The notes under the pieces: model-generated
Told to the model about the DNA's origin: nothing
The model's input: the letters and a program-made list of their open reading frames with translations, nothing else
Database searches by the model: none
Position numbers and translations under genes: made by a program
Part shown: one piece after another, positions 4,912 through 8,839 of the stretch
Numbering within the stretch: position 1 is the stretch's first letter
How the letters are laid out: every line of letters begins with the position of its first letter
Source: Fibrobacter succinogenes subsp. succinogenes S85
GTDB taxonomy: Bacteria > Fibrobacterota > Fibrobacteria > Fibrobacterales > Fibrobacteraceae
Length of the DNA stretch: 32,000 nt
Assembly: GCF_000146505.1 (NCBI RefSeq)
Contig: NC_017448.1
Coordinates: 1,620,001-1,652,000, forward strand
Direction of reading: 5' to 3'

Positions 4912-7038
4912 TCACATACCATCTTTAAAAGTAAGCACACCATTTTTATTTATCAACTCATACAGAGAATCAAAATATTTTTCTGCACATTCTTCATGAT
5001 CAACAACGGCAACAGTTTTTCCCTCTTCAACAAATGAATTGATATATGAAGCAACGGCGTGTATTTCAGTTTTACTAAGGCCCTTAAAAGGTTCATCAAT
5101 CCCATACACATCTACAGAAATCTTATGTATTTGAGCAAGTTTTATTCTGACGTTTTCTCCCCCCGAAAGACTAGAAGTATTTTGTCCTAAAGTTAAATGT
5201 CCCAACAACAGCTTTTGAGCATTCTTCAAAGGAATTTCAATTTTGGCATTATTCGCAAAGAAATCAGCAGCTTCATCTATAGTCATTTGCCATAAATCAA
5301 AAATATTTTTTCCATTAATAAAATATTTTTTTAGTTCCGTATTAAAACCAGTCCCCATACATTTAGCACAGACAAATGAGACCTCCTCATTTCGATTTTG
5401 ATTGTAAATTATCACCCCCGATCCAGAGCATTCTGGGCAGGCGCCTTCGGAGCCAACCAAATTTGAAAAAAAAGTCTTTTTCTTTGAATATTTTTTTGCA
5501 AACAAACCTATAATTTCGCCAAAAACATCCAAAACTGTTGCAACAAAAGAATGTGAATTTCCCACTAAAGATTTTTGACTTACATAAACATATTTATCAA
5601 AAATTCTTGGGAAATACTCTCGAAGTAAAATTGACTTTCCAATCCCAGAGGCTCCCATAATCAAATTACTTCTGCCATAAGCCAAATTCACGTCCACACC
5701 TTTAAATTGATAAATAGGATGATCTATACGATAATCACAAACATCAACAACAGGACGTTTAATCCAGGCAACATTCACATTCTGGCTTTTTAAGTATTTT
5801 TTATAATCAACAAGTTTGCCACCAAGTTTTCCACCACCTTCGCCAAGAGCAATTACATTAGATGCAGCCTTAATGAAGTTTTCATGATGATCAATAACTA
5901 AAATCGTATGATTTTTTTTTAAATTCAGAATATTTTTTTCAACAACATCCTTTTCTGTTTTGGACAAACCAGCAAGAGGCTCATCCAAAACAACAAGTGT
6001 ATTTTTTATCTGAGAATTAAAAATTTGCACTAATCTCAAACGTTGCAGCTCTCCTCCTGACAACGAAGGAATTGATCTATTCAAATTTAAATATGCCAAA
6101 TTCAATTCTATAGATTTCTTAAGAAAAGCAATAATTTTTTTGACAGAAAACATCATTGAAGGGAAACGCAAACCAACCTCAGACGCCCACTCAACGACAT
6201 TTTCAAAGGACTTATTTAGAACTTCTCCTATAGACAATCCACAGACAGTCAATTCTCTATATTTTTTAGCATATTTTTCACCATTACATTCTTCACAAGT
6301 AAAATCAGAATAATAATTTTCACTAATTGATGACGTTCGCAACATTGGAACACCAGTCATCACGCCAAAATAACGACAAGTTCTCCTAGCAAAACGTCCA
6401 AGGGTTTTATAGCGAACAGAATATTTCTTTAAACCTTCACCATATAGCAATTTCTTTTGCAATTCAAAAGGCAACTTTCCAAACTCACAATCACAATCAA
6501 TATGTTTTTCTTCGCAAAAAAAGTTTAGCATGCCGGAAAAAAAATCTTTATGCGTATTCCAGGGTTTAAACGGGACATCCTTAATTTTTTTCTTAACATC
6601 AACAATTTTTGTTTGATCTAAACGTTTTACAAATCCAAGTCCTTTACAAACAGGACATACATTTTCTTTTTTATTCAAAACAAAAAAACCATACTCTTTT
6701 TTCAAAACAAAAGAGAAAATATTAATAACATATGGCACAATATTAAAGTATGTGCCTATTGTTGACCGAACGTTGTTATTATTATTTATTTGCTTAACAG
6801 GAACTGTAACAAGAATATTATGATATTCACCAACGCAATACTTTGGTTCACCACCAAAGTCAGAATACATAGAATTCAATTCCTGTAAACCAATTTCTGC
6901 GATAGTATCATACGCAAGCGAGGACTTTCCGCTGCCAGAAGGTCCAACAATAATATTAATAGCATTCTTCTTTATATGAACGCTAATTCCTTTAAGATTA
7001 TTTGTAGAAATCTCTTTTACTACAATATCTTCCTGCAT
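4912..7038 (-). CDS. UvrA-family double-ABC ATPase paralog, short form apparently lacking the UvrB-binding domain
   Basis: Motifs of the first ABC module are GPSGSGKS, LSGGELQRLRL and VVLDEP. Those of the second are GASGIGKS, LSGGENVRIKL and YGIDEP. UvrA-type Zn modules are CPVCKGLG, CEECNGEKY and CPECSGSG...CAKCMGTG. The track starts at a TTG (7044), but the ATG at 7038 has GGAGAGGA just upstream. It overlaps the maturase stop by 19 nt. Confidence 0.85.
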   Translation of the reverse strand: MQEDIVVKEISTNNLKGISVHIKKNAINIIVGPSGSGKSSLAYDTIAEIGLQELNSMYSDFGGEPKYCVGEYHNILVTVPVKQINNNNNVRSTIGTYFNIVPYVINIFSFVLKKEYGFFVLNKKENVCPVCKGLGFVKRLDQTKIVDVKKKIKDVPFKPWNTHKDFFSGMLNFFCEEKHIDCDCEFGKLPFELQKKLLYGEGLKKYSVRYKTLGRFARRTCRYFGVMTGVPMLRTSSISENYYSDFTCEECNGEKYAKKYRELTVCGLSIGEVLNKSFENVVEWASEVGLRFPSMMFSVKKIIAFLKKSIELNLAYLNLNRSIPSLSGGELQRLRLVQIFNSQIKNTLVVLDEPLAGLSKTEKDVVEKNILNLKKNHTILVIDHHENFIKAASNVIALGEGGGKLGGKLVDYKKYLKSQNVNVAWIKRPVVDVCDYRIDHPIYQFKGVDVNLAYGRSNLIMGASGIGKSILLREYFPRIFDKYVYVSQKSLVGNSHSFVATVLDVFGEIIGLFAKKYSKKKTFFSNLVGSEGACPECSGSGVIIYNQNRNEEVSFVCAKCMGTGFNTELKKYFINGKNIFDLWQMTIDEAADFFANNAKIEIPLKNAQKLLLGHLTLGQNTSSLSGGENVRIKLAQIHKISVDVYGIDEPFKGLSKTEIHAVASYINSFVEEGKTVAVVDHEECAEKYFDSLYELINKNGVLTFKDGM

Positions 7039-8429
7039 GAACAATCCTCTCCCGTAACTACTCTATGCAAATCACCAATAAAGAATTCTAAAGTTTTTTT
7101 TGCATGCACACAGAATCGTTCATCTAAAGAATGAATCGTATTGCCCTCATGTTCCCCCATAGCATTAATCGGGCAACCACCACCGCAAATACCAAGAGCT
7201 TCACAATCCTGGCATTCATCTTTCTCAATGGGGGAAAGATGATTCCATTCTTGCCACACAGGGTTTTCACGAGGATTAAAATCAAGATCATCTACACAAG
7301 AATTAAAATAATTCCTATCTGATAAACAGCCATGACAAATACCGACTGCACCATCTGCAGCTATCACAATTTGCCCAGCAGATGTTGCAGCACAATCAGA
7401 AAAATAAACTTGAGCCTTCGCAAATGACTTCAATTTGCGCATAATTCGATCTTCATAAACGCCAATTTCACGCAATTGTTTAAACACATCAATAATAAAT
7501 TGAGCAGCTTTATCATTGTAATCAGCAGGCAACGGATAACGATGGTCGCCCATCATAATGTTAAAGCCAAGCCCTTTCACATTGTATTTTTTTATCAAAT
7601 CAATAACATCAGACTGACGCTTTATTGTTTCTTCAGTTAATGTAATAGACAATGACACAGGGACATTAAGTTCTTTTGCAATATCAAGAGTCTTTACAAT
7701 CTTAGGGAAAACAATATTGCCATTTAAATCAACACGCATTGCATTAGACGCTTCATCGCAACCATCAATTGATATTGCGATTGAGACATTCAATTCACGA
7801 AGTTGCAGAAGTCGTTTTTCAGACAACAGAAGACCATTCGACACCATTGAAAATTCAATATTTTCAAGAACCTTATGTTCAGATTTTAGTGAATTAAATT
7901 TTTCAACCACATACACCAACGTTTCAAAATTCATCAAAGGTTCGCCACCATAAAAAATCACAACCGGCTTTCGATTTGCGTTATATTCAACAGATTCCAG
8001 CTGTTTTAGGAAGAAATACACACCCTTTTCAGCGATTTCCTTTGACATTAGTTCTTTTGCAAAATTTTTTCTTCTTTCTTTATCGTTGTTTCCCAAAAAA
8101 CAATATTTGCACGCTAAATTACATTGTTCCGACAAAATGAAATAGCAAACGCTAATTTCAGGCTCCGAGAGTTTGCTTTTTACAAAAGACAACATTTTTT
8201 CATCTTTTTCGGGGCTATCTATCAGAATCTTATATTTTAGGAGTTCTTGAACCTCTTGTTCAACTTCAAAAGGCACAACAACAGGTTGTCTGTCTGAAAC
8301 TTCTCCTAGAAATGTTTCCACCTGTTTAAATTTGTCTCTAGTCAAAAAAACAGGTTTCATTCTCAACGAATTATAAAGAGCCACATCGCTCCCTACAAAG
8401 AACTTGTGTGTATAGCGGGAAAAAAGCAC
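7020..8429 (-). CDS. Radical SAM/SPASM peptide maturase with N-terminal RRE-like extension
   Basis: 469 aa. CNLACKYC (CxxxCxxC) appears only at about residue 103. The C-terminal CQDCEALGICGGGC matches the Cx2Cx5Cx3C SPASM motif, preceded by ...DGAVGICHGC. It uses a GTG start with AGGAG 6 nt upstream. Confidence 0.9.
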   Translation of the reverse strand: MLFSRYTHKFFVGSDVALYNSLRMKPVFLTRDKFKQVETFLGEVSDRQPVVVPFEVEQEVQELLKYKILIDSPEKDEKMLSFVKSKLSEPEISVCYFILSEQCNLACKYCFLGNNDKERRKNFAKELMSKEIAEKGVYFFLKQLESVEYNANRKPVVIFYGGEPLMNFETLVYVVEKFNSLKSEHKVLENIEFSMVSNGLLLSEKRLLQLRELNVSIAISIDGCDEASNAMRVDLNGNIVFPKIVKTLDIAKELNVPVSLSITLTEETIKRQSDVIDLIKKYNVKGLGFNIMMGDHRYPLPADYNDKAAQFIIDVFKQLREIGVYEDRIMRKLKSFAKAQVYFSDCAATSAGQIVIAADGAVGICHGCLSDRNYFNSCVDDLDFNPRENPVWQEWNHLSPIEKDECQDCEALGICGGGCPINAMGEHEGNTIHSLDERFCVHAKKTLEFFIGDLHRVVTGEDCSCRKIL

Positions 8430-8440
8430 TTAAATCTCCT

Positions 8441-8477
8441 AAAAAAAATCGTTGTGAGGAAACAAATTCTTCACAAC
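8441..8477 (-). terminator. Intra-operon hairpin plus U-run (candidate leaky terminator/attenuator) between the peptide genes and the maturase
   Basis: The minus-strand RNA reads GUUGUGAAG-AAUUUGUUU-CCUCACAAC-GA-UUUUUUUU. The stem is 9 bp with one A-C mismatch and is followed by eight U. The maturase RBS comes immediately after. Confidence 0.5.
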
Positions 8478-8504
8478 GCGATGGCCATATTTTGCCCTTA
8501 AATA

Positions 8505-8675
8505 TTAGACACTGCCCCAATCAACATCATCTGAGTCATCAGAGTCTATACGACAGGAACATGCACAAGTGCAAGAATTGCATGAAACACACGCACAACG
8601 AGCCATAGATTGTTCATCATCACGTTCCGCGATATTACCAAACATTTTAGCATACTGATATACTGTAACGCTCAT
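8505..8675 (-). CDS. Cys-rich precursor-like peptide 2 (56 aa)
   Basis: MSVTVYQYAKMFGNIAERDDEQSMARCACVSCNSCTCACSCRIDSDDSDDVDWGSV. The ATG overlaps the stop of peptide 1 (TAATG), and GGGAGG lies 9 nt upstream. It is paralogous to peptide 1. The track reports only a longer 86-aa ORF in this frame. Confidence 0.75.
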   Translation of the reverse strand: MSVTVYQYAKMFGNIAERDDEQSMARCACVSCNSCTCACSCRIDSDDSDDVDWGSV

Positions 8676-8839
8676 TATACAGCCTCCCATTCTACATCTG
8701 AAGTACATCCGCCAGAGCAGGAGCAACGACAGCTGCACATACAGCCCGTACACTGACCTATGCAAGAACCCATAGCATTCTCTGCTGACGGCAGAACACC
8801 AAACATTTTTTCATAATCTAAAGTTGAATAGTTTACCAT
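8675..8839 (-). CDS. Cys-rich precursor-like peptide 1 (54 aa)
   Basis: Hand translation: MVNYSTLDYEKMFGVLPSAENAMGSCIGQCTGCMCSCRCSCSGGCTSDVEWEAV. AGGAG (8850..8846) lies 6 nt upstream of the ATG at 8839. It is missing from the ORF track (too short). Confidence 0.75.
   Translation of the reverse strand: MVNYSTLDYEKMFGVLPSAENAMGSCIGQCTGCMCSCRCSCSGGCTSDVEWEAV

Follow-up and report, generated by a model that had tools for sequence, protein, structure and literature searches.

The stretch of DNA analysed here (hereafter the window), 32,000 nucleotides of the Fibrobacter succinogenes S85 genome (contig NC_017448.1, positions 1,620,001 to 1,652,000), carries at 4912-8839 of its minus strand four co-oriented and closely packed genes, visible in the list of open reading frames (ORFs), which code for two cysteine-rich precursor peptides, a maturase of the radical S-adenosylmethionine (SAM) type and a soluble UvrA-like ATPase. 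The peptides and the maturase are members of a system known as FibroRumin, which belongs to the peptides that are made on ribosomes and then modified post-translationally (RiPPs). Three points appear to be new: the UvrA-like ATPase is an integral and co-evolving third component of the FibroRumin cassette, the cassette follows a rule of two precursors (A and B) with fused variants, and the same clade of ATPases is reused by other minimal RiPP cassettes. The four genes are the following:

8675-8839, minus strand: pepA, precursor peptide A, 54 amino acids with 8 Cys (ORF and match to TIGR04135)
8505-8675, minus strand: pepB, precursor peptide B, 56 amino acids with 7 Cys (ORF and match to TIGR04135)
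7020-8429, minus strand: FibroRumin radical SAM/SPASM peptide maturase, 469 amino acids, GTG start (match to TIGR04136)
4912-7038, minus strand: UvrA-like, class-II-type soluble tandem ABC (ATP-binding cassette) ATPase, 708 amino acids, ATG start at 7038

The identity of the first three genes comes from an NCBIfam scan, in which the maturase reached 973.1 bits against the equivalog model TIGR04136, 'FibroRumin system radical SAM peptide maturase' (cutoff 400), with its residues 3-459 aligned to model positions 1-458, and pepA and pepB reached 84.2 and 95.6 bits against TIGR04135 FibroRuminTarg (cutoff 45), a model described as 'FibroRumin family radical SAM-modified Cys-rich RiPP' and present in the newer Pfam release as PF27848 FibroRuminTarg. 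The two small ORFs are not products of chance, since both exceed the cutoff of a curated peptide family and related loci nearly all have homologous peptide genes upstream of their maturase. Judged by these profiles, the peptide and maturase pair is the already catalogued FibroRumin system; RefSeq uses the FibroRumin names for such genes, and F. succinogenes S85 is the organism behind half of the name. The initial annotation of this DNA had pointed to a FibroRumin model, and exactly so; its proposal of an undescribed RiPP-type system is, for the same reason, false as far as the peptides and the maturase are concerned. It was right in placing the peptides outside the SCIFF and CXXX-repeat families, the maturase staying far below the cutoffs of both (TIGR03974, 96.8 bits versus 425; TIGR04115, 68.5 versus 350), and it also stays below those of PapB (127 versus 340) and HxsB (76 versus 370), with the remaining models of radical SAM-SPASM peptide maturases, CefB and others, all far under their cutoffs. 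For the UvrA-like partner, no NCBIfam model scored above its cutoff, and the curated FibroRumin models comprise the peptides and the maturase only. RefSeq names such proteins 'hypothetical protein', 'ATP-binding cassette domain-containing protein' or 'daunorubicin resistance protein', the last being the name of the F. succinogenes S85 entry to which the protein of the window is 100% identical. Literature searches by family name and TIGR accessions, full text included, found no experimental study of the FibroRumin family in the library searched, and nothing relevant that links UvrA with radical SAM, SPASM or RiPP, nor through terms of daunorubicin resistance. An RNA-seq study of F. succinogenes names radical SAM genes by locus tag only.

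The partnership was studied by a census in both directions. In the forward direction, one genome per GTDB species was scanned; a scan from the single maturase sequence found no relatives, and the alignment-based scan succeeded, yielding 64 loci, of which 57 (the window included) have at least 700 nt downstream of the FibroRumin maturase and were counted. A UvrA-like gene lies directly downstream of the maturase and on the same strand in 49/57 loci, mostly 8-31 nt away, in hosts from at least seven phyla: Spirochaetes, many Firmicutes (Selenomonas, Bacillus), Synergistetes (Fretibacterium), Fibrobacter, Actinobacteria (Atopobium, Coriobacteriales), Desulfovibrio and Enterobacterales (Kosakonia), with Proteus mirabilis found separately. 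The pairwise identities of maturases and ATPases correlate (r = 0.75, Mantel test 0 of 999), which supports their co-divergence as genuine partners rather than accidental neighbours. The exceptions comprise a chromosomal lineage of Campylobacter, two divergent loci (Cloacimonadota and Clostridium eludens) and one gene that is truncated. In the Campylobacter lineage (loci L003, L004, L006, L008 and L058; around 9788-11410 in L058) the AT-rich insert is reduced to one peptide and the maturase, the peptide being divergent (CACFCSCSCGMCVCSCRG...IAWEIC) and the insert lacking the UvrA-like gene; all four genes of the cassette are present on a Campylobacter plasmid (L065).

In the reverse direction, metagenome contigs were searched with a segment specific to the UvrA-like clade, and 72 loci with upstream DNA were retained. 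FibroRumin cassettes account for 58 of them: the maturase is directly upstream in 56, a gap of 400 nt separates the two genes in one, and in another (L137) the gene of an IS200-type Y1 transposase, at 2637-3095, interrupts an otherwise intact cassette between the maturase and the UvrA-like gene. A second system, made of a CxxxC-repeat peptide and a radical SAM-SPASM enzyme of 382-385 amino acids devoid of a RiPP recognition element (RRE), accounts for 11 loci, one of them frameshifted (L072 at 3232-6734, L070, L073, L074, L076, L093, L097, L100, L101, L102 and L111). There remain one locus (L139) with a 68-residue Cys-free peptide rich in Ser, Thr, Asp and Glu and an ATP-grasp enzyme of MvdD type, hence graspetide-like, one (L112) with a TPR and metallo-beta-lactamase-fold protein upstream, and two (L145 and L147) with the same truncated UvrA-like copy; these classes add up to 73 and not 72 owing to the L145/L147 duplicates and to one borderline locus of the second system. 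About 97% of the UvrA-like clade thus adjoins a RiPP-type pair of precursor and maturase, and the maturases are of three kinds. Like FibroRumin, the second system, which is found outside the window, combines a Cys-rich peptide and a radical SAM-SPASM enzyme followed by an ATPase of the same clade, 49% identical to that of the window; it differs in the missing RRE and in its peptide of 57-80 amino acids, whose cysteines have CxxxC spacing in a Gly/Ser-rich core and which ends in ...YYASGCGCTGNCGQSCSGGCETGCSGNCGRSCSGSGS. Its enzyme meets no NCBIfam cutoff (PapB, 135 versus 340; CXXX-repeat, 118 versus 350). The graspetide-like cassette (L139, 153-3474), a single instance, has the order peptide, MvdD-type ligase and UvrA-like clade member. 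No sequence motif is common to the three peptide families that accompany the clade, and one ATPase clade serving three peptide families is the most interesting unexplained point of this work. The initial annotation had singled out the UvrA paralog as the unusual partner of the maturase, and the counts in the two directions bear it out as a real and conserved one.

What kind of UvrA relative is this partner? It scores 317 bits against the TIGR00630 uvra model in the NCBIfam scan, below the equivalog cutoff of 729.8, and retains the DNA-binding insertion domain of UvrA (PF17755, residues 143-230). Compared with the UvrA of Thermotoga maritima and Mycobacterium tuberculosis, about 150-160 residues are absent, and these correspond to the UvrB-binding domain: the deletion is located by the alignments, in which residues 109-118 bridge positions 113-266 of 3pih and residues ~105-119 bridge positions 131-294 of 3zqj. 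The sub-cutoff score and the deleted domain rule out a canonical UvrA. Among 34 homologues, the Walker A, signature, Walker B and H-loop motifs are invariant in both halves, as are the cysteine pairs C128/C131/C248/C251 and C534/C537/C557/C560, which we assigned to Zn modules 2 and 3. At the sequence level, one alignment runs from end to end against Ecm16 (7sh1), a class II UvrA protein, over residues 10-694, and the AlphaFold2 (AF2) model (mean predicted local distance difference test score, pLDDT, of 88; predicted template modelling score, pTM, of 0.81) superposes with template modelling (TM) scores of 0.85-0.87 on the Bacillus stearothermophilus UvrA 2r6f and of 0.82 (target-normalised) on Ecm16. 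The predicted fold and two intact ABC sites, together with the missing UvrB-binding domain, are the features by which class II UvrA-like proteins are recognised. Identity to Ecm16, to UvrA2 and to every solved UvrA, whether of class I or II, is only 22-27%, and as far as sequence comparison goes the partner is a deep and separate clade of UvrB-independent UvrA-like ATPases.

Several proteins of this class have been characterized. Ecm16, DrrC and the UvrA2 of Deinococcus radiodurans are likewise tandem ABC ATPases of UvrA fold without the UvrB-binding domain; class II members act independently of UvrB and need their ATPase activity (PMC9328131, PMC10413001), and those UvrA-like proteins that lack the UvrB-binding domain provide self-resistance, dependent on ATP, to natural products that bind DNA (PMC9328131, PMC10192343, PMC10413001), to the point that uvrA-like genes are used as markers for mining clusters of DNA-binding products (PMC10413001). 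The FibroRumin gene resembles ecm16 and drrC in sitting inside a biosynthetic cluster; identity to Ecm16, DrrC and UvrA2 is only ~24-25%, the hosts are gut, rumen and oral anaerobes instead of actinomycetes, and the partner pathway makes a ribosomal peptide, whose DNA binding is putative, in place of an intercalator assembled by polyketide synthases or nonribosomal peptide synthetases.

The maturase has the CxxxCxxC motif of radical SAM enzymes at C103/C107/C110, and it matches PF04055. Across 22 homologues these three cysteines are invariant, and so are eight auxiliary ones (C346, C365, C368, C406, C409, C415, C419 and C440), such as are usual in SPASM domains that hold two auxiliary clusters. 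In the AF2 model (mean pLDDT 72), residues 7-85 form three strands and three helices with RRE topology; the N-terminal region (residues 1-85) is a putative RRE-like domain. The closest solved sequences are TigE (8vpo) and CteB (5wgg), and the best full-length Foldseek matches of the model are CteB (5wgg, 5why), then TigE (8vpo), ChlB and anSME. Motif cysteines, NCBIfam and fold matches agree on the architecture of CteB and PapB that had been read from the letters, a putative RRE followed by radical SAM and SPASM domains, and by homology thioether formation would be the default expectation. The predicted order of RRE, radical SAM and two-cluster SPASM domains, with Cys-rich substrates, is that of CteB/CteA (SCIFF, thermocellin) and PapB/PapA (ranthipeptides); FibroRumin differs from them in the spacing of the core cysteines (CxC, period 2) and in having two precursor types. 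We know of no UvrA-like partner described for either of these systems.

The precursors of the window have a leader, a core and an acidic tail: Y-E-K-M-F-G, CIGQCTGCMCSCRCSCSGGC and DVEWEAV in pepA, and Y-A-K-M-F-G-N-I, CACVSCNSCTCACSC and DVDW in pepB. We surveyed the peptides of 117 loci with enough upstream DNA and found two types, with the consensus ...Y..MLGNI....C[IM][SG]QCTGCMCNCRCSCSGG..D.EWE... for A and MSAN..Y.K[ML]FG.I...VMARCACVACNSCTCACSCR..PE..EIEW. for B, each having seven conserved cysteines per core. Most loci (80/117) have A followed by B, and 3 more have A, B and extra copies of B. A single fused peptide, in which a B-type core precedes an A-type core (CNCTACNSCACGRCERCISQCTGCR...ELEWEVA), is present in 13 (among them L036, L037, L040, L043, L045, L046, L047 and L061), the single divergent peptide of the Campylobacter lineage (CACFCSCSCGMCVCSCRG) in 9, and other patterns or no recognised peptide in 12. 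The 13 fusions constitute a Rosetta-stone link, from which A and B probably act together. Leader, core and C-terminal acidic-Trp tail are all conserved across phyla, unlike most bacteriocin-type RiPPs, whose cores are hypervariable. No double-glycine or other recognisable cleavage motif was seen in the FibroRumin precursors, and no protease gene is linked to them.

The arrangement of the cassette supports a single transcription unit, as the initial annotation had it, and the details that it listed (close packing on the minus strand, overlapping TAATG, 75-nt spacer with a hairpin, 19-nt overlap, and peptides of 54 and 56 residues with 8 and 7 Cys, a shared leader motif and a D-V-[ED]-W tail) are all found in the ORFs and between them. 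The intergenic and flanking features are as follows:

8840-8965, minus strand: AT-rich region upstream of the cassette, defined by composition; presumed promoter region
8430-8504, minus strand: spacer of 75 nt between pepB and the maturase gene
8441-8478, minus strand: stem-loop CGUUGUGAAGAAUUUGUUUCCUCACAACG, then A and U8 (fold and sequence)
4805-4828, both strands: bidirectional G+C-rich terminator hairpin with 8 G-C among its 10 pairs and a T-run on each strand

An AGGAG Shine-Dalgarno sequence lies 7 nt 5' of the pepA start, and in TAATG the ATG of pepB and the stop of pepA overlap by one base. The spacer then presents, in order, the hairpin (8450-8478, 29 nt), the U8 run (8441-8448), a second AGGAG and the GTG of the maturase. 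That this GTG at 8429 is the correct start is supported on sequence grounds, because residues 4-26 are invariant in the homologues and the TIGR04136 alignment begins at residue 3. The public gene call for the identical maturase (P0001, 446 amino acids, on 44 contigs) begins at Met24 and omits 23 conserved N-terminal residues which belong to the RRE-like domain; GTG 8429, with its AGGAG upstream, is the better start. The UvrA-like gene begins at ATG 7038, with GGGAGAGG before it and a 19-nt overlap with the maturase stop, the TTG 7044 of the ORF list being merely its mechanical first start. The stem-loop of the spacer is a candidate partial terminator or attenuator that would set the ratio of peptide to enzyme. 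Its terminator-like reading rests on the stem and the U-run, since the energy obtained by folding the entire spacer is not significant by itself (z = -1.27), and the low number of G-C pairs in the stem kept a consensus terminator scanner from calling it. Nor is its position conserved, the gap between pepB and the maturase being just 6-10 nt in many loci. The terminator at 4805-4828 is common to the cassette and to a convergent acyl-CoA dehydrogenase gene and stands at the low-coordinate edge of an AT-rich block (~4835-8965, 32-38% GC versus 48-58% in the flanks), whose high-coordinate edge is formed by 8840-8965. The promoter is placed in this latter region by inference, as no convincing sigma-70 consensus was called there.

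Beyond the window, the cassette shows itself to be a mobile, self-contained AT-rich block of ~4 kb that moves between phyla without protease or exporter. Clustering of 1665 flank ORFs gave no recurrent family outside one Campylobacter lineage, and when 138 flank ORFs from 34 loci were compared with Pfam no family had more than 3 members, the recurring ones being resolvase, ParB, Mob and transposase, with single abortive infection (Abi) genes amid housekeeping genes. No conserved fourth gene, whether for a protease, an exporter or an immunity membrane protein, emerged from these flanks outside that lineage, and the earlier remark that neither peptidase nor ABC exporter accompanies the maturase holds for the loci compared. 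In Proteus mirabilis the four genes stand alone between fabF and pabC, on the Campylobacter plasmid p16187MP2 they are enclosed by mobilisation and toxin-antitoxin genes, and the GC content of the cassette is lower than that of its flanks in 34/36 loci. No match was found among 50,697 phage records; within the window, no Rfam hit and no tRNA was detected that might mark a structured RNA or an integration site.

The surroundings of the cassette in the window contain probable traces of rearrangement. About 300 nt, comprising the 3'-terminal ~170 nt of the acyl-CoA dehydrogenase gene and downstream sequence, are duplicated at 87-93% identity and 6062 nt apart (4469-4664 versus 10531-10726 and 4761-4788 versus 10742-10769), leaving an 81-residue fragment at 10459-10704. 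The two copies bracket the cassette and a PIN toxin-antitoxin pair (a small ORF at 9597-9830 and a PIN_3-domain toxin at 9827-10231), no integrase lies between them, and the duplication looks like a scar of insertion or recombination. A GC-rich palindromic intergenic element (TTGCGnGTGCGGCGnCTGAGCACCCGCAGTGAG ... GGGGGATTCCTCCCCC) occurs in 2-3 copies (8990-9105, 10431-10463 and 11234-11319) flanking small toxin-antitoxin-like genes; the idea of integron cassettes for these repeats was discarded, as they are short palindromes without attC-like features and in 2-3 copies only. A DUF2281 antitoxin-like gene (10943-11194, minus strand) and a 118-residue ORF without Pfam hit (9166-9522) are also nearby. 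A second AT-rich block (15588-25613, 33-38% GC) is ruled out as a related island, for it holds glycan/teichoic-acid-type biosynthesis genes: this surface-glycan cluster codes for a WecG/TagA transferase, a HAD-domain protein, two CDP-glycerol glycerophosphotransferases, a Polysacc_synt flippase and two GT2 proteins, and includes a 444-residue ORF without Pfam hit (22075-23409). At its edge (26203-27552) lies the gene of a protein with Schlafen/AlbA_2, HATPase_c_4 and winged-helix domains.

What could such a cassette do? The mechanism we favour starts with the docking of the maturase, through its RRE, on the leader motif Y-x-x-M/L-F/L-G-N-I shared by the precursors; 5'-deoxyadenosyl radical chemistry would then crosslink the seven conserved cysteines of each core, most likely into sacti- or ranthi-type thioethers such as those made by the nearest structural relative, CteB. 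The target of the modified product would be DNA within the cell that makes it. The UvrA-like ATPase would, by analogy with Ecm16 and DrrC, be the protective partner, recognising peptide-laden DNA in an ATP-driven manner and clearing the host chromosome without hand-off to UvrB. Peptide and maturase would be the active principle and the ATPase an accessory. An intracellular product is suggested by the fact that the module crosses monoderm and diderm hosts without exporter or protease and that the peptides are conserved over their whole length. For the ATPase, protection directed at DNA is the reading with the best support, because ATP-dependent self-resistance to DNA-binding products is the only function established for UvrA-like proteins that are encoded in clusters and lack the UvrB-binding domain (Ecm16, DrrC; PMC9328131, PMC10192343). 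Its accessory status is argued from the Campylobacter lineage, where peptide and maturase are intact in its absence. We give this reading as a whole, crosslinked peptides acting on DNA in the producer with a UvrA-like ATPase to protect the host DNA, a probability of roughly 45%.

Several observations weigh against it. The crosslink chemistry and the DNA activity of the product are predictions. To our knowledge, what the characterised UvrA-like resistance proteins guard against are small intercalators or groove binders of actinomycetes and not peptides of ~50 residues, and the partner described here is not specifically kin to the resistance clade, its identity of 22-27% being the same to Ecm16, UvrA2 and canonical UvrA alike. 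A genuine difficulty is that one ATPase clade partners three chemically unrelated types of peptide and maturase, which would be awkward if each product had to bind DNA. Immunity does not seem to be always needed, as the chromosomal Campylobacter lineage has peptide and maturase and no ATPase, and orphan 'immunity-only' copies of the ATPase are rare (3 distinct cases among 72 loci). Finally, the lack of an exporter stays unexplained should the product be an exported bacteriocin.

An unlikely alternative, though the least unlikely of three, is that the cassette is a module of defence or DNA surveillance, in which the ATPase would be a sensor or effector scanning, for example, phage or plasmid DNA and the modified peptides its cofactor, regulator or toxic output. 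It would suit a cassette which is small, AT-rich, horizontally mobile and cell-autonomous, whose peptide cores are conserved and not hypervariable, and which in several loci, the window included, adjoins toxin-antitoxin, Abi, mobilisation or recombinase genes, even if the flanks consist of housekeeping genes as often as of defence genes and the phage collection holds zero copies. The PADLOC results cut both ways: the N-terminal half of the ATPase matches mad3 of MADS with 133 bits (and the radical SAM enzyme pVip with 55), but no system model matches the four proteins, the cassette has no other mad genes and the peptides give no hit, so that membership in a catalogued defence system is ruled out, only matches at the level of domains having been obtained. 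A precedent is HXS (HxsA-D), a system of radical SAM enzymes and a peptide or protein substrate which, like FibroRumin, was first defined in silico and was later shown to be a cell-autonomous antiphage defence acting on DNA entry (PMC13128918); it differs by its HxS repeats, a periplasmic effector, two radical SAM enzymes and the absence of a UvrA-like ATPase. The Campylobacter lineage, which retained peptide and maturase after the loss of the ATPase, is hard to reconcile with an ATPase effector.

It is still less likely that the ATPase is a maturation or handling factor, an ATP-driven chaperone or scaffold that would work on the peptides instead of DNA and present, unfold, metallate or release the Cys-rich precursors for a single maturase, in place of the leader-handling proteins found in other RiPP pathways. 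Its translational coupling to the maturase (overlapping by 19 nt here, at -18 to +31 nt in most loci) and its presence with three pairs of precursor and maturase, as is typical of generic RiPP accessory modules, are what one would expect of such a factor, and another handling step may indeed be needed since the cassette has neither protease nor exporter. Against it stand the DNA-binding insertion domain of UvrA and both zinc modules, which are kept and invariant; the three peptide families have no motif in common, the Campylobacter lineage apparently matures its peptide without it, and we know of no peptide-binding role for any UvrA-family protein. The weakest alternative, an exported two-peptide bacteriocin of sactibiotic-like type relying on unlinked host functions for export and leader cleavage, with the UvrA-like gene guarding the producer against re-entry, has for it the resemblance of the two precursors to two-component bacteriocins, the sactipeptides and ranthipeptides made by relatives of the maturase and an ABC exporter-type gene near the ATPase-less Campylobacter variant (on the opposite strand), and is improbable in view of the transfer between monoderms and diderms without exporter or protease in 49/57 loci, the missing double-glycine or other cleavage motif, and a core and C-terminal tail that are conserved across phyla instead of diversifying.

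For years FibroRumin has been a database name without a function, and the census makes of the real unit a three-component one, the third being a putative DNA-scanning ATPase of the kind which protects antibiotic producers from their own DNA-binding drugs; it points to an intracellular, DNA-related activity and away from a secreted bacteriocin. A broader proposal, conceivable although rather doubtful, is that the UvrB-independent clade is the portable partner of at least three kinds of minimal RiPP cassettes, whose peptides act on intracellular DNA while the ATPase keeps the chromosome clear; the peptides could, for instance, chemically stop phage or plasmid DNA that invades the cell, or work as an addiction toxin. 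If true, this would be the first DNA-directed family of radical SAM RiPPs and a novel class of mobile modules, for defence or addiction, common in gut, rumen and oral bacteria. The natural occurrence of the cassette in Proteus mirabilis and Kosakonia offers tractable hosts. Were the link to DNA confirmed, DNA-active RiPPs could be mined with uvrA-like genes as markers, as is already done for the intercalators of actinomycetes, and a widespread module would be added to the biology of the gut, rumen and oral microbiomes.

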